DNA of 64,000 nt from a virus. Positions 3,234-34,071 of the stretch are shown here, one piece after another (positions within the stretch are counted from its first letter, which is position 1; the number at the start of each line of letters is the position of its first letter). The position numbers were made by a program, and so were the translations under genes. The notes beneath the pieces were generated by a model. It was not told where the DNA came from. It saw only the letters and a program-made list of their open reading frames with translations, and ran no database searches. The DNA is taken from positions 1 to 64,000 of the IMG/VR virus record IMGVR_UViG_3300029915_000731. One strand, 5' to 3'.

Positions 3234-3320
3234 TGGTGCCAGAGACGGGACTCGAACCCGTATGAGTTTAACCTCGGAGGTTTTTGAGACCTCTGCGTAT
3301 ACCAATTCCACCACTCTGGC
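3234..3320 (-). tRNA. trnL: tRNA-Leu(CAA)
   Basis: Anticodon arm GAGGT-CTCAAAA-ACCTC, long variable arm, CCA end. Confidence 0.95.
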
Positions 3321-3326
3321 AAATTT

Positions 3327-3414
3327 TGGTACCCGTGACAGGAGTCGAACCTGCAAGACCCGGAGGTCTATGAGGGCTTAAACCTCATGTGTACGCCAAT
3401 ACCACCACACGGGC
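3327..3414 (-). tRNA. trnL: tRNA-Leu(TAA)
   Basis: TGAGG-TTTAAGC-CCTCA, CCA end. Confidence 0.93.
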
Positions 3415-3424
3415 ACATCTAAAC

Positions 3425-3515
3425 TGGTCGGCGCGGGGAGACTTGAACTCCCAGTTGACCTTGCGGTACGGCACGCCCTGAACGTGCTGTGTCTGCCGAA
3501 TTCCACCACGCGCCG
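3425..3515 (-). tRNA. trnL: tRNA-Leu(CAG)
   Basis: GCACG-TTCAGGG-CGTGC, CCA end. Confidence 0.93.
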
Positions 3516-3527
3516 AAAAATCTAAAA

Positions 3528-3615
3528 TGGTACCGGGTGAGAGACTCGAACTCTCATGAAGCTTGCGCCTCGCTAGCTCCTAAGGCTAGGGTGTCTGCCA
3601 TTCCACCAACCCGGC
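3528..3615 (-). tRNA. trnL: tRNA-Leu(TAG)
   Basis: CTAGC-CTTAGGA-GCTAG, CCA end. Confidence 0.95.
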
Positions 3616-3627
3616 AAATCTAAACTT

Positions 3628-3719
3628 TGGTACCCCTGACAGGACTCGAACCTGCAATGTTTACCGCTTGGGTATCGCGTCTTAAGCGCGACGTGTCTCG
3701 CCAGTTTCACCACAGGGGC
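3628..3719 (-). tRNA. trnL: tRNA-Leu(TAA), second copy
   Basis: TCGCG-CTTAAGA-CGCGA, CCA end. Confidence 0.92.
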
Positions 3720-3731
3720 ACATCTAAACTT

Positions 3732-3822
3732 TGGTCGGCTCGATGAGATTCGAACTCACAATTGTCCTTTCGGAACACATGGACCTCAACCATGCGCGTC
3801 TCGCCAATTTCGCCACAAGCCG
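3732..3822 (-). tRNA. trnL: tRNA-Leu(GAG)
   Basis: CATGG-TTGAGGT-CCATG, CCA end. Confidence 0.92.
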
Positions 3823-3845
3823 ATACTTTACTTCAATACTGAGTG

Positions 3846-4094
3846 TTACCTCTCAACATGCCCCCTCTGAGAAAGCGCCCGGTCGATAAACTGGTCTGCA
3901 ACCTGTTCTCGGTACGCCGGGGACTCAAACAAACTTTTAGTGTCCATGGTGTAGTAGGTATTGTAGCTCTTCTTCCCCACCTTGTCGGATACCGCCACTT
4001 TCAGTATTGGAAAGCAGCCTCCGACTTGGACGGTGACATCGTCTCGCGTCACCTTTACCTTGCCATTCTTTAATACCTTAACACCCTTATCCAT
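3846..4094 (-). CDS. Hypothetical protein inside tRNA operon 1
   Basis: 82-aa ORF co-oriented with the tRNAs. Confidence 0.55.
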   Translation of the reverse strand: MDKGVKVLKNGKVKVTRDDVTVQVGGCFPILKVAVSDKVGKKSYNTYYTMDTKSLFESPAYREQVADQFIDRALSQRGHVER

Positions 4095-4114
4095 TGTTTC
4101 AACCTGTTACCCTC

Positions 4115-4270
4115 TCACAGAATACTCACGCCTCCACGTCCAGCTATATGCTTTATCGTTTGGCCACAGTTTGGACAACACTTACGACTGACTCCTATGA
4201 CTCCTATAGGGGCTAGAAACGCTGCTAGAAGCCCCGAGATAACGAAAATGATAACCACTGTCAAAACCAT
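4115..4270 (-). CDS. Small membrane protein with CPNCG motif (51 aa)
   Basis: GAGGT SD; MVLTVVIIFVISGLLAAFLAPIGVIGVSRKCCPNCGQ...; below ORF-track cutoff. Confidence 0.55.
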   Translation of the reverse strand: MVLTVVIIFVISGLLAAFLAPIGVIGVSRKCCPNCGQTIKHIAGRGGVSIL

Positions 4271-4286
4271 AAATACCTCTCGGAAT

Positions 4287-4351
4287 CGGTGGGGGTGAGG
4301 AAATTGCTTCCCAGTGCTCCGCCTATTTGGGGTTATTCAGCGGACACCCCC
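4287..4351 (-). ncRNA. Short tRNA-like element (acceptor-like stem, one internal arm, T-like arm)
   Basis: GGGGGTG...CACCCCC-ACCG; CCGC/GCGG arm; GGAA-GCAAT-TTCC. Confidence 0.4.
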
Positions 4352-4355
4352 GAAC

Positions 4356-4462
4356 TGGTGGACTGTGGTGGCGTTCGAGCCACGCTATCGCTTCATCTCA
4401 GGACACGGGAAAGTCACCCTAGCACCTGCCTTTACGATGTCTTCACCTAACTTACACAGCCC
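4356..4462 (-). ncRNA. Ala-identity tRNA-like RNA resembling a tmRNA tRNA-like domain
   Basis: GGGCTGT/ACAGTCC-ACCA with G3:U70; T-like arm; long interrupted helix instead of anticodon arm. Confidence 0.6.
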
Positions 4463-4469
4463 AAAACTT

Positions 4470-4556
4470 TGGTCGGCTTGGGGGGACTTGAACCCCCACT
4501 CCCTTGCGAGAACCAGCCCCTCAAGCTGGCGCGTCTGCGAATTTCGCCACAAGCCG
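4470..4556 (-). tRNA. trnL: tRNA-Leu(GAG), second copy
   Basis: CCAGC-TTGAGGG-GCTGG, CCA end. Confidence 0.95.
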
Positions 4557-4587
4557 ATAACTTACATTAACCTAATACTACAAAATC

Positions 4588-4625
4588 TGGTGGGCTGGGA
4601 AGGATTAGTTATACCTCACATCCCC
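4588..4625 (-). pseudogene. 3' fragment of a tRNA-Tyr-like gene
   Basis: ...CCTTCCCAGCCCACCA resembles the 3' end of the neighbouring tRNA-Tyr; no 5' half. Confidence 0.4.
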
Positions 4626-4634
4626 TTACGAAAG

Positions 4635-4722
4635 TGCGCCGTGATGGATTCGAACCACCGATGTTACTCTTAAAGAGGACTGGGTTACGGCCAGTCGCTT
4701 TCGTCCACTCAGCCAACGACGC
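4635..4722 (-). tRNA. trnY: tRNA-Tyr(GTA), atypical (C33, no encoded CCA)
   Basis: ACTGG-CCGTAAC-CCAGT; GGTTCGAATCC T arm; long variable arm. Confidence 0.8.
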
Positions 4723-4735
4723 ATATCTAAAAATT

Positions 4736-4826
4736 TGGTGGGTAGGGAGGGATTCGAACCCCCAGCGTGCCCAAAGGGCATCCAGATTTACAGTCTGGCG
4801 CGGCCAACCGTATCCACGTCCTACCC
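4736..4826 (-). tRNA. trnY: tRNA-Tyr(GTA)
   Basis: CCAGA-CTGTAAA-TCTGG, CCA end. Confidence 0.93.
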
Positions 4827-4860
4827 ACAATACAAAAGCCGCTCGGTTGAGAGCGGCTTC
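4827..4860 (-). terminator. Attenuator terminator of tRNA operon 1
   Basis: AAGCCGCTC-TCAACC-GAGCGGCTT-TTGTATTGT immediately before the first tRNA. Confidence 0.85.
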
Positions 4861-4883
4861 GTTTGAACTCTGGTTTGACTTGA

Positions 4884-4976
4884 CTATTTGTCAGTCCACC
4901 CGTTCAACACGGAGCCGTCGCTAAGCAGGTAATACAAGCTTAGTGATAAAACCGAGTTGTTAACGAGGTTGGTCAT
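4884..4976 (-). CDS. Leu/Tyr leader peptide MTNLVNNSVLSLSLYYLLSDGSVLNGWTDK
   Basis: AAGGG SD; contains all six Leu and both Tyr codons; 3' part overlaps the antiterminator. Confidence 0.85.
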   Translation of the reverse strand: MTNLVNNSVLSLSLYYLLSDGSVLNGWTDK

Positions 4977-4999
4977 TGTCATCCCTTTCGCTGTGATAA

Positions 5000-5032
5000 G
5001 CGTCTAGGGGTCGCTTAGCGTCCCCTAGACGC
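5000..5032 (-). promoter_or_regulatory. Strong 5'-UTR hairpin upstream of leader peptide 1
   Basis: 11-bp perfect stem GCGTCTAGGGG/CCCCTAGACGC. Confidence 0.6.
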
Positions 5033-5071
5033 AATACTCTATATACTCTATATCGGTACCACTTCATATAT

Positions 5072-5101
5072 ATAATACGCAGGAAACCGGAAAACTGTCA
5101 A
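5072..5101 (-). promoter_or_regulatory. sigma70-type promoter of tRNA operon 1
   Basis: TTGACA-N18-TATTAT. Confidence 0.8.
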
Positions 5102-6676: not shown

Positions 6677-8395
6677 TCATTCTTCATAGTTCTCGTAAGC
6701 TTCAACCACTCGCTGTACCAAAGCATGGCGAACCACGTCAGTCTTATCGAAGTCTTGAAAGTGAATCCCCTCAATGTCGTGTAGCACTTTGCGTGCCTGA
6801 ATCAACCCGCTCATCTGACTAATGGGAAGGTCGATTTGAGTGATGTCTCCGGTGATGACCACTTTCGACTCCATACCCATGCGGGTGAGTAACATCTTCA
6901 TCTGCTGAGTGGTGGTATTCTGCGCTTCATCAAGAATGATGAAAGCGTTGTTGAGGGTGTTATGAGTCAAGATAAAATCATCGGTGACATACAAACTGTC
7001 CCCTGCCGCTACCTTAATACACTGAGTTTCCTCATCTCCTATAAATTCAATGGACTTAATAGATCGAACCGGACGCCCCCTTTTTGTCGTGTGATAGGCT
7101 TCAGACTTTCGACTAAGCCTAAACGGCTCTAGCCCATCCGGGAGTCTTATATCGAGACAAAACCAATTGCGCCGATGATACACGGGTCGGGTAGAAGAAC
7201 CCCCCGGTCTTCCTGATGGCTTTCTTTCTCTCCATGTAACTGTGCCACCTAAAGAGCGAACTAAGAAAATCACGCCATCTTTAAGTTGTTCTGAAGTAGT
7301 GGTATACCCGATACGGCTGGTTCTATTATTTTGTGAAACTACACCACCGTCTGTATCTAACAACCCTTGCAATACCCCAAGTCTAACATTCAAACTATTG
7401 TACAGATATTCCTCGGGGATAAACTTGGTGTAAGAATAGGTGCCAAGTGTGTAGTCAATATCCGAACCCGTGCAGGGTTTAATCACAACTTTCATCCAAT
7501 CCAAGTAGGGAGCAATCAGTGCTACTGAATCTGCTGTAGTAAAAGAGGGGGTGGTCGAACCTGTAATACACCCGTCTCCCAATAGAGCCCCTAACAAATA
7601 GGGATCAAGTGGAACATGTCGAAACCCAAAATTAACGGGGGCGACTAAAGGCAGTTCATACCGATATTGATGGGCACTCCGTAGACTATCAACCATATCT
7701 TTAGTCTGAATAACGCGATACGGCTTATCTCGACGTTTATCACTCGCAGTCAGCACAGACCATAAATGTTCATCAGAAGCTAATGTGGAAGCCCCATCAG
7801 TGGTTGTTACTCTGTAGACAGGCTTAACACCTTGTGGGTACACCCCTAAAACTGTTGTTGGACTACCATCCGACCCAACCACTGCATCCCCTACTTCAAG
7901 GCTCCCCATTAACTTCCAGCCAGTTGGTGTTAAAACACTACTTCGGAGGGGCTGCGCTCTACCCCTCATGAAAGCCAACGGGGCAACCTCGATAATTCCC
8001 TTCTCCAAATACTGGTCAACCTTCTCTGGGGGCATCAGGTCGTAGAGCGCGTCGTACAGAGGGCGCAGGTAGGGGTCAACCTTATCCTGCATAGAGCCAG
8101 GGAGGAAGCCCAAACGTTCTCCTGCTTCTACGGCGGGGCGGACAAGAACAAGGCGATTACCCTTCTTTGCCAGCCAAGTGACTGCTTTGGCGACGGCGAG
8201 GAGGGTCTTGCCTGTACCTGCGGGCCCAATGCCGAAGACCATATCGTTGGCATCAATCGCATCGAGGTAGTTCTTTTGGTTGACACTCTTCGGCTTAACC
8301 TTCAGAAAGCCCAGCTTCGCAGATGGGTGATAAGGGGCATCAACTTCAACTTGCGATGCTTCGGGAGTTACCTTTTTCTTATACTTGTTACCCAT
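6677..8395 (-). CDS. phoH: PhoH-family ATPase with intein
   Basis: [29 protein letters not shown]|[21 protein letters not shown]. Confidence 0.95.
6959..7957 (-). mobile_element. Class-3 intein (333 aa) with LAGLIDADG homing endonuclease
   Basis: Starts AQPL, ends ILTHN followed by T; EHLW, TQCI, LTHN; LLGALLGDG and LQGLLDTDG. Confidence 0.9.
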
Positions 8396-28885: not shown

Positions 28886-28960
28886 TGGAGCGGGAGACGG
28901 GAATCGAACCCGCGACATTCAGCTTGGGAAGCTGACGTTCTACCACTGAACTACTCCCGC
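28886..28960 (-). tRNA. trnG: tRNA-Gly(CCC)
   Basis: TCAGC-TTCCCAA-GCTGA, U73-CCA. Confidence 0.97.
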
Positions 28961-28997
28961 TCACTTCGTATGAATCTCTCTTCGACCGTACAAACTT

Positions 28998-29162
28998 TTA
29001 TTTTACAATAGAGATGATGTCACGGCCTTCTTCACCGACCACGTAGGCTGTGATCGAAGATTGATCGAACTTCCGATAGCAGCGCGGGGTGTCCCCGTCG
29101 ATGTGAATGCGGACAGTAGACGCCTGTGACATCAGGAATCCCACGTTCTCCTTCTGCATCAT
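28998..29162 (-). CDS. Small hypothetical protein (54 aa)
   Basis: MMQKENVGFLMSQ...IISIVK; follows tandem GTATTAG motifs. Confidence 0.45.
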   Translation of the reverse strand: MMQKENVGFLMSQASTVRIHIDGDTPRCYRKFDQSSITAYVVGEEGRDIISIVK

Positions 29163-29198
29163 CTCTAATACTGCTAATACTGCTGTTCTACTATTTAC

Positions 29199-29274
29199 TG
29201 GTAGGGTTAGTGGGGTTCGAACCCACGTTGGAAGATTGAAAGTCTTCTATCCTGACCGATTAGATGATAACCCC
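29199..29274 (-). tRNA. trnE: tRNA-Glu(TTC)
   Basis: GAAGA-CTTTCAA-TCTTC, CCA. Confidence 0.92.
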
Positions 29275-29280
29275 AAAAAA

Positions 29281-29358
29281 TGGTAGGGCCAGTGAGATTC
29301 GAACTCACGATTTCCTCCTTGAGAGGGAGGCGGCTTAAGCCAACTGGCCTATGACCCC
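29281..29358 (-). tRNA. trnE: tRNA-Glu(CTC)
   Basis: CCTCC-CTCTCAA-GGAGG, CCA. Confidence 0.92.
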
Positions 29359-29375
29359 ACATTACATCTAAAATT

Positions 29376-29443
29376 TGGTAGCGGTTTCCGACGCCCGCAC
29401 GGTTCCTCCCAGCAGCTACGGGGAGCCCGTTGTTACACCGCTA
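29376..29443 (-). ncRNA. Degenerate tRNA-like element ending in ACCA
   Basis: AGCGGT/ACCGCT-ACCA with one long internal hairpin. Confidence 0.4.
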
Positions 29444-29472
29444 GCTGTTCTCTAGTTCCAAGCGGGAGTCAT

Positions 29473-29579
29473 TTTCAATCAGACCCCGAGACTTTCCGGG
29501 GATGTAACGCCTGTGCGTAATCTCACTGTCCCCGATAGTTTCTTTCAATCGGACCCCCGATACCTTCCGGGGATGTAAC
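29473..29579 (-). CRISPR. Two-repeat mini CRISPR array
   Basis: Repeats 29473-29508 and 29543-29579 (GTTACATCCCCGGAARGTMTCGGGGTCYGATTGAAA), 34-nt spacer. Confidence 0.75.
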
Positions 29580-29594
29580 GCCTGTGCGTAATCT

Positions 29595-29670
29595 TGGTAC
29601 TCTCGGTTGGATTCGAACCGACGATTTCCTCCGTGTCGAGGAGGCGATTTAGCCACTAATCTACGAGAGC
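29595..29670 (-). tRNA. trnV: tRNA-Val(GAC), atypical C33
   Basis: CCTCC-TCGACAC-GGAGG, CCA. Confidence 0.88.
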
Positions 29671-29676
29671 AAAACT

Positions 29677-30351
29677 TTAGTACAGTAAGTCTAGTTCACC
29701 CTTCAATATTCTCTCTGGGTACTGAACCATCTTACCATTGCGATGGTCTTTTGCGAAGCCCTTAATGAAGTTGTAGGTGCGAATCTTATCGCCCCGGCCA
29801 CCTCCACCTAACTGACTCTGCCGCTCAATACCGTAAGTGGTCTCTGCTTCCTTATCCTTCGCCAGCTTCACTTTCTGAGCTAGGATGGCAAGTGCGTCTT
29901 CCTTGTTACGGTGTTGGTCTCGACCATTGATAAAGACCGACAATCCAGTGGGCTTGTGTACGGCTCTCACCGCACTGTCGGTGGTGTTCTGATGCTGCCC
30001 ACCTTTACCGTGCCCCCGCTGAGTCTTGACTTCAATCTCAGAATCGGGAAGTTTGTCCTGATACTTCTCAGGAGGTAATGGCAATACAGCTACCGAGACC
30101 ACTGATGTGTGCCGCCGTCCAGCCCTGTCATTATCAGGGCACCGCTGGACAACGTGCTTTCCAGCTTCCCGGCGAAATAGTTCCCATACGTCTTGCCCAG
30201 AGAACTTCATTACTGCGTGTCCAAAACTACTGGTGAGTATCTCGGTCTTGAGTTTCTTGCGGAGCCCATACTGTGCGTAAGCACTGAGCATGTCGTCCAC
30301 GAAACCCTTCGAGTCATCCCCACCTTCACCGAAGTGAATTTCGAGAATCAA
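29677..30351 (-). CDS. Class-1 peptide chain release factor homolog lacking domain 1; true start likely 30417/30421 via stop bypass
   Basis: ILEIHFGEGG, EAGKHVVQRCP, GRRHTS, GKGGQHQNTTDSAVR, KIRTYNF. Confidence 0.9.
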   Translation of the reverse strand: MILEIHFGEGGDDSKGFVDDMLSAYAQYGLRKKLKTEILTSSFGHAVMKFSGQDVWELFRREAGKHVVQRCPDNDRAGRRHTSVVSVAVLPLPPEKYQDKLPDSEIEVKTQRGHGKGGQHQNTTDSAVRAVHKPTGLSVFINGRDQHRNKEDALAILAQKVKLAKDKEAETTYGIERQSQLGGGGRGDKIRTYNFIKGFAKDHRNGKMVQYPERILKGELDLLY

Positions 30352-30469
30352 ATCTGAGGATGGTCTAAAGACAGTTCCCTCGGACTGTATTCACCGCGTT
30401 GCTTTTCTGTTTTTCATACATAGCATCCTCCTCAGGATTGAATTAAATCTTCTTCCTTCCAGCCTCTTA

Positions 30470-30634
30470 TCACCTCGACTGCTGTCGCTCGTGGCTCAGG
30501 TAAGAATAACTTGCCATGAGAAAACCAATTGGATCATCTCCAGCACCAACATCACCATCAAACAGTTCTACCAAGAACTTCGCTACTCTCGCTTCGTCAG
30601 GCGAGTATGGATTGGTCTCCATGTTACGTGTCAT
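30470..30634 (-). CDS. Small hypothetical protein (54 aa)
   Basis: AAGGTGAG SD; MTRNMETNPYSPDEARVAKFL...GAGDDPIGFL. Confidence 0.55.
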   Translation of the reverse strand: MTRNMETNPYSPDEARVAKFLVELFDGDVGAGDDPIGFLMASYSYLSHERQQSR

Positions 30635-30668
30635 TTCTCACCTTAGAACAGTAAATCTACTCCAAAAC

Positions 30669-30744
30669 TGGTGGAGCTGGAGAGGCTTGAACTCTCGACC
30701 TTTTCCATGCCATGGAAACGCGCTCCCAACTGCGCCACAGCCCC
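30669..30744 (-). tRNA. trnA: tRNA-Ala(GGC)
   Basis: TTTCC-ATGGCAT-GGAAA; G3:U70. Confidence 0.96.
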
Positions 30745-30751
30745 ACAACTT

Positions 30752-30855
30752 CGTGTGATGCAGTGCCGGAATCGAACCGACCTTGTGGCCGACAGAATCA
30801 TCCAAGCCATCTTATGGATTCAAGAGAACCCAGTTCTCTTCATCCTGCACACACG
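30752..30855 (-). ncRNA. tRNA-like RNA with canonical T arm but closed termini
   Basis: GTCGG-TTCGATT-CCGGC; 8-bp AAGAGAAC/GTTCTCTT arm; no CCA. Confidence 0.55.
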
Positions 30856-30863
30856 CTAAAAAT

Positions 30864-30942
30864 TGGCGGTTCCAGCGGGATTTGAACCCGCGATCTTCAC
30901 CTTGACAGGGTGACGGGGACGGCCAGACTCCCCTATGAAACC
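30864..30942 (-). tRNA. trnD: tRNA-Asp(GTC)
   Basis: TCACC-CTGTCAA-GGTGA; G73-CCA. Confidence 0.95.
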
Positions 30943-30950
30943 AAAACTTT

Positions 30951-31026
30951 TGGTGGAGCTAGTCGGGATCGAACCGACGACCTCATCGTTGCGAACGATG
31001 CGCTCTCCCAACTGAGCTATAGCCCC
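30951..31026 (-). tRNA. trnA: tRNA-Ala(CGC)
   Basis: CATCG-TTCGCAA-CGATG; G3:U70. Confidence 0.97.
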
Positions 31027-31042
31027 ATCCCCCTTTATGCGC

Positions 31043-31223
31043 GACCGTAAGGGCTCGTGACAGAGTTGACCTAGCGGCGGGGGTACCGTTTCATGCCTCT
31101 CCCAGTGTCACCCAAGAGACTACAAGCGGCGGAGGTACGGTAGCATGTCAAAACCAGAGAGCGAGTCTTTCTCCATCTGTTATGTGTTTACTACTCTCGC
31201 CCTACCGTCACAACCCATTGGTC
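31043..31223 (-). ncRNA. Unassigned multi-stem structured RNA
   Basis: Nested pairings GACC/GGTC, GGGTTGTGAC/GTCACGAGCCC, GGTAG/CTACC, GCGAG/CTCGC, GTACC/GGTAC. Confidence 0.5.
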
Positions 31224-31254
31224 AGTTTCTACTCACTGGGTCGGACTTAAACTT

Positions 31255-31291
31255 TTTCAATTGAACCCCGAGACCTTCCGGGGATAACAAC
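31255..31291 (-). CRISPR. Solitary CRISPR-like repeat, variant 2
   Basis: GTTGTTATCCCCGGAAGGTCTCGGGGTTCAATTGAAA. Confidence 0.65.
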
Positions 31292-31299
31292 CACTTATA

Positions 31300-31380
31300 T
31301 AAGATGTGAGGATGAGCTTCTCGTCTCACCCATAGCGGGTTCTTATGTTGCCGCCGTCCTGATTGAACGATCACACCTTA
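31300..31380 (-). ncRNA. Cloverleaf-like RNA without anticodon loop or CCA
   Basis: TAAGGTGTGA/TCACATCTTA terminal stem enclosing three arms. Confidence 0.45.
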
Positions 31381-31384
31381 AACT

Positions 31385-31461
31385 TGGAGCACTAGGAGGA
31401 ACTCGAATCCTCGCATTAACGGTTTTGCAGACCGTCGCCTTACCATCTTGGCCACTAGTGC
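31385..31461 (-). tRNA. trnC: tRNA-Cys(GCA)
   Basis: ACGGT-CTGCAAA-ACCGT; U73-CCA. Confidence 0.92.
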
Positions 31462-31466
31462 TAAAC

Positions 31467-31545
<79 letters not shown>

Positions 31546-31603
31546 TGAGGGGGTAAATTTATAAAGCGGAAAGTCTACGTCAGACCCCCATCCGCTGAAT
31601 TAC

Positions 31604-31988
31604 TGTGCCAAACCGATAAGCGGAGTTCTGTTCCCCTCGCGGGGTGACAATCATTCGTCTACGAATACTGTTACCAGTACCCTCTAGCCCTCAACCCGCC
31701 GATTCATAACGGTACGAGCAGTACCTGTCGGCCTATTTGAAGTTGCATCGCGTAGAGATTGCCCGTTTCACCCGGCGTCCGGTTTCCCGGCTGACCGACT
31801 CGTCTCTGTTGCTCTAATCGTCGCAAGGGGGATTGGTTGGGAATTTACGGCTGTTACACCGCTGTCACGTTCGACATGAGAAACGCTTCCAACCACACCT
31901 TACGCTAGGCCGTTAGCCTATACGCTGCTCTTTGATGCTCCGACTTTCCTCCCCCACTTGCGTGGCGGCGATTGTCTGGTTTGGCACA
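31604..31988 (-). ncRNA. rnpB: RNase P RNA (bacterial type A)
   Basis: P1 TGTGCCAAACC/GGTTTGGCACA; GAGGAAAGTCGGAGC pairing with ACAGAACTCCGCTTA (P4); GGGCAATCTCTAC, TGCAAC, GGTAAC. Confidence 0.95.
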
Positions 31989-32019
31989 ATTCTGTATTGA
32001 AGCCGGGTCGGGACTTACA

Positions 32020-32361
32020 TCAATCCACCTTGATGCGTTCTACTGCCACGCAGCGGAGGTGGTCTCGCACCTCTTGAGAGAACTCGTTGAACATCGTGCC
32101 CTTATCCAACCAGTGCAAGATGGCCGCCCAAGTCTCCTCTTCAGGGGTCCACTGCCCTTCAAGACCGTAACACGAGCAGTGTGAACCGTGAACTGAAAAC
32201 AGCTTACCATCCTTCTCGAATAGGACAAAAGCCGAACCCTCGTAACACTCGTAGCGATACACAGCCGCGTAGATTACAGCGTCCTTCAATTCGTCCTCGC
32301 CGATTTGGAACTCCCGGCGGATGTCTTCAGCTTCATTGAACTGCTCCTCGAATACATTCAT
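32020..32361 (-). CDS. Conserved phage hypothetical protein (start revised to MNVFEE)
   Basis: AGGAG SD; YEGSAFVLF..DGKLF.VHGSHCSCYGLEGQW. Confidence 0.75.
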   Translation of the reverse strand: MNVFEEQFNEAEDIRREFQIGEDELKDAVIYAAVYRYECYEGSAFVLFEKDGKLFSVHGSHCSCYGLEGQWTPEEETWAAILHWLDKGTMFNEFSQEVRDHLRCVAVERIKVD

Positions 32362-32447
32362 TGTGTTTTCTCCTTGTGAAATCACATTCACGGGTGGAGT
32401 CGCGCAATGAAGTTCGATATGACAGCCCAACCCGACTTCAAAACTTT

Positions 32448-32526
32448 TGGTGGACCTCCAGAGATTCGAACTCTGCTGATATTTTCGGTGCAAGCGAAAT
32501 AAACACTCCTAGCATTTCCGAGGCCC
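32448..32526 (-). tRNA. trnA: tRNA-Ala(TGC), divergent D arm
   Basis: TTTCG-CTTGCAC-CGAAA; G3:U70; ACCA. Confidence 0.85.
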
Positions 32527-32568
32527 ACATTAAACTTAAATTTTCAAAGACCGTCAAGCTCTAAACTT

Positions 32569-32605
32569 TTTCAATTGAACCCCGAGACCTTCCGGGGATA
32601 ACAAC
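32569..32605 (-). CRISPR. Solitary CRISPR-like repeat, variant 2
   Basis: Identical to 31255-31291 including short flanks. Confidence 0.65.
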
Positions 32606-32711
32606 CACTTATAAGCTTGATTCGTCGGGTGTCAAGCTTATTAGCTTGTCCCGGTGTCAACCTAATACTGTTGACATTACCTTTGTCAACGTTACTCTGT
32701 TGACGAAACTC

Positions 32712-32786
32712 TGGAGCGGGAGACGGGAATCGAACCCGCGACCAACAGCTTGGAAGGCTGAGACTCTACCACTGAGTTACTCCCGC
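32712..32786 (-). tRNA. trnG: tRNA-Gly(TCC)
   Basis: CAGC-CTTCCAA-GCTG. Confidence 0.97.
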
Positions 32787-32810
32787 ATCTACCCCCTTCA
32801 TAAAATCTCT

Positions 32811-32903
32811 GAGGAGCCTACAGGACACTACCTGTAGTCATTGGCGGTAATCGGGTCTCCCCTTCCCGCTAGGTAAGCCGAACTTACGTTTCGGCCACTC
32901 CTC
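32811..32903 (-). ncRNA. Unassigned four-way-junction RNA
   Basis: GAGGAG/CTCCTC; GCCGAA/TTCGGC; GCGG..GGG-GAGA-CCC..CCGC; CTACAGG/CCTGTAG. Confidence 0.55.
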
Positions 32904-32909
32904 AAACTT

Positions 32910-32984
32910 TGGTACTCGATAAAGGATTCGAACCTTCGACTTCCCACTTGTAAGGAGGGCACTCTACCGCTGAGTTAATCGAGC
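32910..32984 (-). tRNA. trnV: tRNA-Val(TAC)
   Basis: CCCTC-CTTACAA-GTGGG; CCA. Confidence 0.93.
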
Positions 32985-33012
32985 AAAAGTAAAGCCACCT
33001 TAAGGGTGGCCT
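32985..33012 (-). terminator. Attenuator terminator of tRNA operon 2
   Basis: AGGCCACC-CTTAA-GGTGGCTT-TACTTTT directly before tRNA-Val. Confidence 0.8.
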
Positions 33013-33035
33013 CGTTAGGTTCGGATTGATTCTGC

Positions 33036-33152
33036 TTATCCGATTCCTCCCGAGGACATGGTACCCTCATCTCCGCCTTCGCAATCAGCGGCCACGCCCG
33101 CGGCGACTGCTGCGGCGCTGACGGCTACGATGCTGGCGATGGTGTTGGTCAT
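33036..33152 (-). CDS. Val/Ala/Gly/Asp/Cys/Glu leader peptide MTNTIASIVAVSAAAVAAGVAADCEGGDEGTMSSGGIG
   Basis: GAGGA SD; lies between promoter and terminator; codons match downstream tRNAs. Confidence 0.85.
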   Translation of the reverse strand: MTNTIASIVAVSAAAVAAGVAADCEGGDEGTMSSGGIG

Positions 33153-33170
33153 GTTCTTCCTCACACTTTT

Positions 33171-33200
33171 ATAATACCCAGTATTTCTGGTTTTTGTCAA
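33171..33200 (-). promoter_or_regulatory. sigma70-type promoter of tRNA operon 2
   Basis: TTGACA-N18-TATTAT. Confidence 0.8.
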
Positions 33201-33243
33201 TTCATTTCTGAATTTATTTTTAAACCCCATCATCTTTTCAATT

Positions 33244-33434
33244 TTTCAATCAGACCCCGAGACTTTCCGGGGATGTAACTAAATCTTGGGGTCGGGTAGA
33301 CCGTTGGTTTCAATTTTCAATGTTTCAATCGAACCCCGAGACTTCCCGGGGATGTAACGTGTTTTTGGGCGACCACGATACGCAGGCCCCTTTCAATCTT
33401 TCAATCGGACCCCGATACCTTCCGGGGATGTAAC
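33244..33434 (-). CRISPR. Three-repeat mini CRISPR array
   Basis: 36-nt repeats at 33244-33279, 33323-33358, 33399-33434; 43- and 40-nt spacers. Confidence 0.8.
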
Positions 33435-33441
33435 CTGTAGC

Positions 33442-34071
33442 CTACACAATACCCAGTTCAGCGGGAGATGTCAACTCAGTTCTGAACGTTGCTTTCAATT
33501 GAGAAACCCCACGATAAATGTCGGATTTGACGGCTGTGAGACTCTTGCCCATCATCTCCGCCAGTTCTTTTCCTGTATACCCCTCAATCTGGCTCAGAGC
33601 CACCACCGTGCGATACTTGGGTGGCAGCTTGAGCAGGGCACGGTGGATATCCTCGCGTGCCGGGAAGGACTCTTGCTGTCGGTCTGGGACGCTAAGCTGA
33701 ATCCTACCCCCGGTGAATGATTCCCTTCCCTCTTCATAAGGAATCTGCTCATCAAGTGAGATGTCGAAGACCCGCTTCCGGTACTTGCGAAGGTGTTGGA
33801 GTCCCTCGTTTACTGCGATGCGGTGAGCCCACGTAACAAAACTGGACTCGAAATTGAATCGCTTCAAGTTTAGGTACACCTTCAGCCACGTGTTGGCCGC
33901 AATGTCACAGGCTAGGTCGGGCTGCTCTACCACTCCCCTAGCTGCCTTGAACACACGGTCATCATAGCGTCGGTAGAGTTTACCGAACGCCTCCTCATCA
34001 CCCTTCTTTGCACGCCGAATGAGACTCAACACTTCCTTGTCGTCAAACATTCGTACCTTCTTCTTAACCAT
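33442..34071 (-). CDS. ECF-type sigma-70 factor
   Basis: GDEEAFGKLY, F.TW.HRIAVN (region 2), LPPKYR...EGYTGKELAEMMG (region 4). Confidence 0.9.
   Translation of the reverse strand: MVKKKVRMFDDKEVLSLIRRAKKGDEEAFGKLYRRYDDRVFKAARGVVEQPDLACDIAANTWLKVYLNLKRFNFESSFVTWAHRIAVNEGLQHLRKYRKRVFDISLDEQIPYEEGRESFTGGRIQLSVPDRQQESFPAREDIHRALLKLPPKYRTVVALSQIEGYTGKELAEMMGKSLTAVKSDIYRGVSQLKATFRTELTSPAELGIV

Follow-up and report, generated by a model that had tools for sequence, protein, structure and literature searches.

tRNA genes are usually regarded as constitutively transcribed or controlled by growth rate, and the present analysis concerns how a phage may time and dose the tRNAs that it encodes itself. 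The window analysed here, a stretch of 64,000 nucleotides, is the first part of the 100,340-bp viral record IMGVR_UViG_3300029915_000731, which is ~32% complete by CheckV and is therefore a fragment of a jumbo phage. In the whole record ARAGORN located 21 tRNA genes, every one on the minus strand and all in two clusters (Table 1). The second cluster is preceded by a short ORF rich in codons for the amino acids of its own tRNAs, and the question raised by this locus is whether the ORF and the hairpins behind it form an attenuator through which the phage reads its decoding capacity before transcribing the operon.

A short leader ORF upstream of a 12-tRNA operon

Downstream of the promoter of this leader (leader 2; the leader of the first cluster is called leader 1), the order of elements was SD, ORF, hairpin, terminator-like hairpin and then tRNA-Val(TAC) at position 32984. 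This layout of promoter, SD, ORF starting with MTN and terminator abutting the tRNA had been described in a first-pass annotation, and it was borne out, all checked coordinates being correct on the minus strand. The same annotation had read codons 9-30 as a run almost confined to Val, Ala, Gly, Asp, Cys and Glu, and the codons were indeed as listed, with zero Leu or Tyr codons in the ORF; the run uses 14 distinct codons, and its sole outsider is AGC (Ser). Its statement that the leader exactly spells out the operon was correct as to the six amino acids, which match, but slightly overstated, since GGG is lacking and 13 of the 38 codons of the whole ORF fall outside the set (25/38 within). In terms of Watson-Crick pairing, 10 of the 12 array anticodons have a cognate codon, GGG and GAC being the missing codons; Asp is covered by GAT via wobble, and tRNA-Gly(CCC) is present in the cluster although the leader has no GGG.

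Table 1. Coordinates of the two leaders, the tRNA clusters and neighbouring features in the 64-kb window
Feature	Position	Strand	Remarks
Leader 2 promoter, TTGACA-N18-TATTAT, sigma-70-type	33171-33200	minus	11/12 consensus match
Leader 2 −35 element, TTGACA	33200-33195	minus	spacer 18
Leader 2 −10 element, TATTAT	33176-33171	minus	
Shine-Dalgarno-like GAGGAAG	33156-33162	minus	5 nt upstream of ATG; read from sequence
Leader 2 ORF	33036-33152	minus	38 codons + TAA, starts MTN; ATG 33152-33150, TAA 33038-33036
Leader 2 candidate regulatory run, codons 9-30	33063-33128	minus	21/22 = V, A, G, D, C or E
Stop-codon hairpin (candidate antiterminator)	33010-33055	minus	in minimum-free-energy fold; outer stem CCTCG/CGAGG
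Intrinsic-terminator-like hairpin, GAGGCCACC-loop-GGTGGCTTT then ACTTTT	32985-33013	minus	
Cluster 2 operon	28886-32984	minus	12 tRNAs (Val, Gly, Ala, Cys, Asp, Glu); ARAGORN
157-aa ORF inside cluster 2	32020-32493	minus	
RNase P RNA inside cluster 2	31601-31987	minus	full bacterial type, 182 bits
GGQ class-I release-factor-like ORF, between tRNA genes	29677-30351	minus	224 aa (short); PCRF + RF-1 domains
ECF-type sigma factor gene, immediately upstream of repeats and leader 2 promoter	33442-34071	minus	
Leader 1, before Tyr x2 + Leu x7	4827-5101	minus	same promoter form, MTN ORF, terminator
Cluster 1	3234-4826	minus	Tyr x2 + Leu x7; ARAGORN

The operon is transcribed in the order Val-TAC, Gly-TCC, Ala-TGC, Gly-GCC, Cys, Ala-CGC, Asp, Ala-GGC, Val-GAC, Glu-CTC, Glu-TTC and Gly-CCC, and no second strong minus-strand promoter or terminator was found within it. 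Its RNase P RNA carries the P4 strands GTCGGAG/CTCCG, where the usual form is GTCCGGG/CCCGG. The release-factor-like protein has relatives on at least 10 other large phage contigs, and the copy in L010 has an in-frame stop. tRNA genes of this and related phages are grouped by codon class into a Leu/Tyr block, to which relatives add Ser, Phe or Cys, and a second block of GNN amino acids plus Cys; such blocks were seen in the window, G013, G011 and G005, and the gene order of homologous blocks is preserved between phages. Suppressor-type tRNAs (anticodons CTA, TTA) were present in the related giant phages G005 (167265-167425), G013 (67323-67396) and G009 (152892-152967), hinting at stop-codon recoding in those lineages; none was found in the IMGVR_UViG_3300029915_000731 record.

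Each leader matches its own array

The promoter form TTGACA-N16-19-TATTAT occurs only twice in the 100-kb record, at leaders 1 and 2. No 21-codon window of the record other than leader 1 contains all six Leu and both Tyr codons, and the design of leader 1 is alike: a hairpin spanning the stop codon abuts the terminator and competes with its A-rich lower stem. The first-pass annotation had proposed checking whether the other tRNA cluster has a leader of its own and had argued that two leaders each matching only their own array make coincidence unlikely. Both clusters do have one, and the log-likelihood ratios were positive for the own array and negative for the swapped one (in this record, G000: 8.4 and −4.7 for leader 2, 3.8 and −0.7 for leader 1, respectively); the same pattern was obtained in G013 and G005.

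The leader could in principle be a mere spacer, GC-rich and structured, in which one frame is open by chance, and the region is indeed GC-rich and strongly folded (the leader 2 RNA fold beat 200/200 shuffles, z = −3.6). We regard chance as very improbable in view of the within-genome swap above, of a frame that stays open despite indels, of the permutation tests described below, and of the rarity of such a codon run. Among 87,595 stop-free 22-codon windows in the six frames of the 100,340 bp, a content of at least 21/22 set codons was reached at two loci only, and random 350-nt regions reached the leader 2 score in 10 of 3000 cases. The other V/A/G-rich locus (~137, minus strand, at the contig start) lies antisense to a low-complexity part of an ORF on the plus strand and was rejected as a leader.

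A permutation test of leader codons against array content, which had also been suggested in the first pass, gave the same answer: leaders fit their own arrays. With ORFs chosen by eye, all 12 leader/array pairs were enriched for their own set (binomial tails 5e-3 to 1e-5), and the observed sum was reached in 0 of 100,000 permutations. A selection-free score, defined as the best 20-codon stop-free window in any frame within 350 nt upstream of an array, gave 0/100,000 for the 12 pairs, 1/5040 for 7 representatives, and 0/100,000 for 18 rule-defined arrays in 8 phage records, the rule (two or more tRNAs, no gap above 3 kb) including arrays with no obvious leader; the rows of these permutations are phylogenetically related and represent ~3-4 independent leader types, so the figures overstate independence. 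Fine tracking of Ser, Cys, Phe, Tyr and Gln among the Leu-type leaders, again with ORFs chosen by eye, gave 12/720. For instance, G002 and G003 have tRNA-Cys in their Leu-type arrays and Cys codons in the corresponding leaders; in the window lineage tRNA-Cys lies in the Val/Ala/Gly array, and the Cys codon is found in leader 2 and is absent from leader 1. One leader in G005 is made of R, A, V and Q, and its array comprises Arg x3, Val x4, Gln, Ala x2 and Gly. Exceptions were G001 and G005-D, where the leader has a Cys codon and the array no tRNA-Cys, and, in the rule-defined set, several relatives' arrays had no matched leader (e.g. Ser x5 in G002 and Ile/Thr/Gln in G013).

Leader 1-type ORFs of the window (4884-4976, minus strand), G001 and G013 share an LSLSL motif and contain 5-6 Ser codons, their arrays being devoid of tRNA-Ser. 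The motif is also present in G003 and G005, whose arrays contain tRNA-Ser, and may be what remains of an ancestral Leu/Ser/Tyr/Phe block.

Homologous leaders in other jumbo phages

Three further lineages of jumbo phages were found to have leaders homologous to leader 2, each preceding a homologous Val/Gly/Ala/Cys/Asp/Glu array. A search with the release-factor-like protein led to distant jumbo phages, including G005, with Leu-type arrays, whose leaders have a common LSLSL...Y.LLS core, each followed by a terminator; no homologous Val/Ala/Gly array was found in these distant phages, and no RNase P RNA in five of their records. Closer relatives were found by means of a 21-nt motif common to two Leu-type leaders. 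Among these, G013 (231 kb) and G011 (67 kb) were located independently of leader 2, by the leader-1 motif and RNase P RNA; both carry RNase P RNA within homologous arrays, in the order Val(TAC)-Gly-Ala-[RNase P]-Gly-Cys-Ala-Asp... as in the window, and upstream of both arrays lie a promoter, an SD, an ORF (42 or 47 codons), a hairpin and a terminator. A further leader, L128, was located by a pattern built from the G013 and G011 leaders, along with two duplicates from other samples. Distinct GNN leaders thus found number only four, two of which, L121 and L128, are closely related. Among cultured phages, the leader region gave matches only via tRNA-Val. A pattern of the promoter plus MTN gave 7 matches in viral contigs, none of them near tRNAs, and these were dismissed as chance.

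All homologous leaders precede arrays beginning with Val(TAC). Their ORFs (47, 42 and 42 codons in the three lineages) begin with a stretch rich in T, N, S and I, which is followed by a V/A/G run and then by acidic residues and a single TGC; the promoters at the equivalent position read TTGCAx-N17-TATTAx, and the SD, a purine-rich AGGA/GAGGA, lies 9-10 nt upstream of the start in L121 and L126 and is only a weak purine-rich stretch in L128. Watson-Crick coverage of the array anticodons was 13/13 for G011, 12/12 for L128 and 10/12 for G013 (GGG and GAC missing), the exceptions in the G013 leader being two Leu, two Arg and one Pro. ORF, hairpin and terminator are conserved along with the codon match. 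Indels within the V/A/G core add up to multiples of 3, so that the frame stays open, and between L121 and L128 a 1-nt indel frameshifts the last 8-9 codons, with the arm GCCTCGGG and the loop stop retained. Because the core indels are multiples of three and the frameshifted tail keeps the arm, a comparison of these sequences points to selection for translation of the run and for RNA structure in the tail, and not for the peptide product.

These observations bear on the possibility that the ORF, with a terminator of its own, encodes a functional small peptide made up of a hydrophobic helix and an acidic tail, in which case the likeness to the tRNA set would be a by-product of a membrane-type segment rich in Ala, Val and Gly, and the tRNAs would be expressed by read-through or from other promoters. 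The 18-residue hydrophobic stretch followed by acidic residues is a pattern conserved in four lineages and would suit such a peptide, as would a terminator core predicted to form in all states (see below). Leu, Ile, Phe, Met and Trp are the usual residues of membrane helices, and yet the hydrophobic cores of 4/4 homologs contain none of them; moreover, the C-terminal tail is the very part that is frameshifted between L121 and L128, the sister leader fits a Leu/Tyr array and a G005 leader an Arg/Val/Gln/Ala array, and the stretch from the terminator to the tRNAs contains no further strong promoter. We therefore consider a peptide function, be it in the membrane or as a toxin, unlikely.

In G013 a third candidate leader was noticed at ~191831-191897, upstream of tRNA-Pro(CGG) at 192050. 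There, TTGCAT-N17-TATTAT almost abuts a 21-codon ORF with six Pro codons, which precedes Pro, Pro, Met and Phe tRNAs; a clear terminator was not identified.

The stop-codon hairpin and the terminator

In all four Val/Ala/Gly leaders, the end of the ORF supplies the 5′ arm of the hairpin, with the stop codon in the loop, and the 3′ arm enters the 5′ side of the terminator. In the window, the stop codon occupies the loop or apical part of the hairpin (33055-33010), whose 3′ arm CGAGG (33014-33010) overlaps the lower terminator stem, in which GAGGCCACC (33013-33005) pairs with GGTGGCTTT (32999-32991). The pairing proposed in the first pass (33038-33055 with 33010-33026, reaching into the terminator arm) accordingly appears in the minimum-free-energy fold, and the overlap concerns the lower stem. 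The outer stem is 7-8 bp in the relatives (GGCCTYGG/CCGAGGCC) and only 5 bp in the window. Across the 4 leaders, 97.5% of the terminator cells were paired, with one CG<->GC compensatory pair. The outer stem of the stop-codon hairpin is conserved across the leaders and showed no covariation, and in L128 its conservation is in part due to the pattern used in the search; the inner stem has a different sequence in every phage and still folds. A long imperfect hairpin, not clearly conserved, was also predicted within the leader 2 ORF, and no clear 1:2 pause hairpin could be delineated. In the G013 minimum-free-energy fold, the ORF pairs directly with the terminator 5′ arm. An alternative antiterminator, GTGGCC in codons 20-21 with the terminator 5′ arm, was dropped, as the relatives do not conserve it.

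The effect of ribosome position was modelled by masking a 29-nt footprint at successive A-site codons and computing pair probabilities for an RNA ending after the U-tract; this is an equilibrium folding model, silent on kinetics. With the ribosome on the last ~8 codons, the four lowest terminator pairs had predicted probabilities of 0.8-0.97, and with the ribosome stalled in the regulatory run or absent 0.05-0.47, in 4/4 leaders in both cases. The predicted switch point lies directly after the matched-codon run, and the pairs that switch are those of GAGG with the start of the U-tract (G-U/A-U pairs). The untranslated state looks, by its pair probabilities, like the stalled one. The terminator core of 5-6 G-C-rich pairs was predicted to form at every ribosome position (probability ~0.9-1.0 at equilibrium). 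Since the competing stem in the window is 5 bp and overlaps just the GAGG of the terminator, the predicted effect on termination is modest, and the model supports graded modulation of terminator strength by ribosome position, not a clean on/off switch. Because the terminator core persists at all ribosome positions, the designation attenuator is one that we infer from anatomy.

The limited extent of this thermodynamic switch, confined to the lower stem, leaves some room for a translated leader that acts in cis other than as a codon-specific terminator switch, for example as a general translation gauge in which any traffic opens the hairpin, through RNA processing or stability, or through Rho access. 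The hairpin and the terminator can coexist in the minimum-free-energy folds of the window and L121, as such a role would allow, and one published study reports that termination efficiency depends on ribosome-terminator spacing (PMC4824070). A general gauge would need no array-matched codon sets, and the matching is strong and array-specific; we accordingly see a cis role of this kind as a minority reading, better placed than a functional peptide.

A model for leader 2

Taken together, we interpret leader 2 as a ribosome-mediated (leader-peptide) transcription attenuator gating the phage tRNA operon, with a probability of roughly 0.65. From its anatomy we infer that the ORF is translated, that ribosomes stall in the run and that termination switches accordingly, as follows. 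Transcription would begin at the sigma-70-type promoter, and the 38-codon leader would be translated at once. When Val, Ala, Gly, Asp, Cys and Glu codons are decoded fast, the ribosome would enter the stop-codon hairpin and melt its 5′ arm, and the freed GAGG(CC) would complete the terminator stem, so that RNA polymerase would halt just before tRNA-Val. When any such codon is decoded slowly, which might be caused by a host pool poor for the codon usage of the phage or by host tRNA cleavage, the ribosome would stall upstream, the hairpin would persist and the terminator would be weakened, allowing the 12 tRNAs, the RNase P RNA and the release-factor-like gene to be transcribed. A rise in the phage tRNA level would then shut the operon again, giving negative feedback.

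A broader proposal is that, in jumbo phages, tRNA genes are grouped into blocks by codon class and each block is under the control of a codon-matched leader of its own, which would sense tRNA loss (e.g. by host anticodon nucleases or other defences that deplete tRNAs) and release replacement tRNAs, ribozyme and release factor only for the attacked class, as a modular and self-limiting counter-defence circuit. We put this forward tentatively, with more doubt than belief.

If the attenuator reading is true, a leader reading the codons served by the downstream tRNAs would constitute a direct feedback loop on decoding capacity, the first attenuation system with tRNAs as products, and a natural portable sensor of codon-specific translation speed. 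The signature itself, leader content equal to array content, could help to predict where operons begin and end, and by what logic they are regulated, in uncultured giant phages, and it would connect phage tRNA arrays with host tRNA-targeting defences in a way that can be tested.

Neighbourhood of leader 2

Directly upstream of the leader 2 promoter lie three tandem copies of a 36-nt unit resembling a CRISPR repeat, with a CCCCG/CGGGG hairpin and ATTGAAA at its end (33237-33443, minus strand); more of them are found singly or in pairs among the tRNA genes (29466-29594, 31248-31299 and 32562-32613, minus strand), and no cas genes were seen near them. When the repeats were used as a handle on the host, a scan of 185,579 species genomes gave no matching array; a single match lay inside a coding region and was set aside as chance. 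One protein with 75% identity to the ECF sigma factor is encoded on a 2.9-kb ENA contig, and the sigma factor is otherwise at most 38% identical to its matches; no relative of the gene was found in viral contigs, and one metagenome scan with weak N-terminal patterns gave a 29% match only. Elsewhere in the window, a PhoH-like ATPase gene (6677-8395, minus strand) is interrupted by LAGLIDADG homing-endonuclease and Hint-type matches and, judging from these domains, is probably an intein-containing phoH.

Comparison with known systems

Leader-peptide attenuators are well known from enterobacteria, such as trpL, hisL, leuL and pheL and the multivalent thrL and ilvGMEDA leaders. Leader 2 resembles them in its short ORF between promoter and first gene, enriched in signal codons, and in a probable intrinsic terminator that follows a putatively competing hairpin, the 5′ arm of which is part of the 3′ end of the ORF; like the thr and ilv leaders, it would sense several amino acids by one leader. 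Unlike them, it is phage-borne, would sense six amino acids with 14 codons, and would control tRNAs (plus RNase P RNA and a release-factor-like gene) instead of biosynthetic enzymes; as it would regulate tRNAs, signal and product would therefore be the same molecules. It differs further in that its stop codon lies inside the hairpin loop and its competing stem overlaps only the lower terminator stem, and, unlike in trp superattenuation, its untranslated state resembles the stalled state in the folding model. The E. coli pheST attenuator provides leader-peptide control of a synthetase, phenylalanyl-tRNA synthetase, with one amino acid sensed. Attenuation by leader 2 would likewise serve the translation apparatus and not amino-acid synthesis, whereas leader 2 precedes tRNA genes and has a multi-isotype roster.

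T-box riboswitches bind uncharged tRNA directly and do not need translation. They share with leader 2 the 5′ leader and, on the attenuator reading, a choice between terminator and antiterminator that reports tRNA status, but no T-box or specifier structure was found at leader 2 with Rfam: the region 32950-33250 gave no match at E<=1, and at the gathering threshold the window contained tRNAs and RNase P RNA only.

Full-text literature searches found no published account of leader-peptide attenuation of tRNA arrays, and the nearest case in print is the trn operon of Anabaena sp. PCC 7120, a silent tRNA array that is induced under translational stress and is controlled by a protein repressor, TrcR (PMC8421152, PMC10272220). 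The 2023 paper on it contains no word that begins with 'attenuat' and does not mention a leader peptide. That operon is bacterial and has no codon-matched ORF, unlike the leader 2 system; what the two would have in common is an accessory tRNA array that is kept off and is turned on when translation is impaired.
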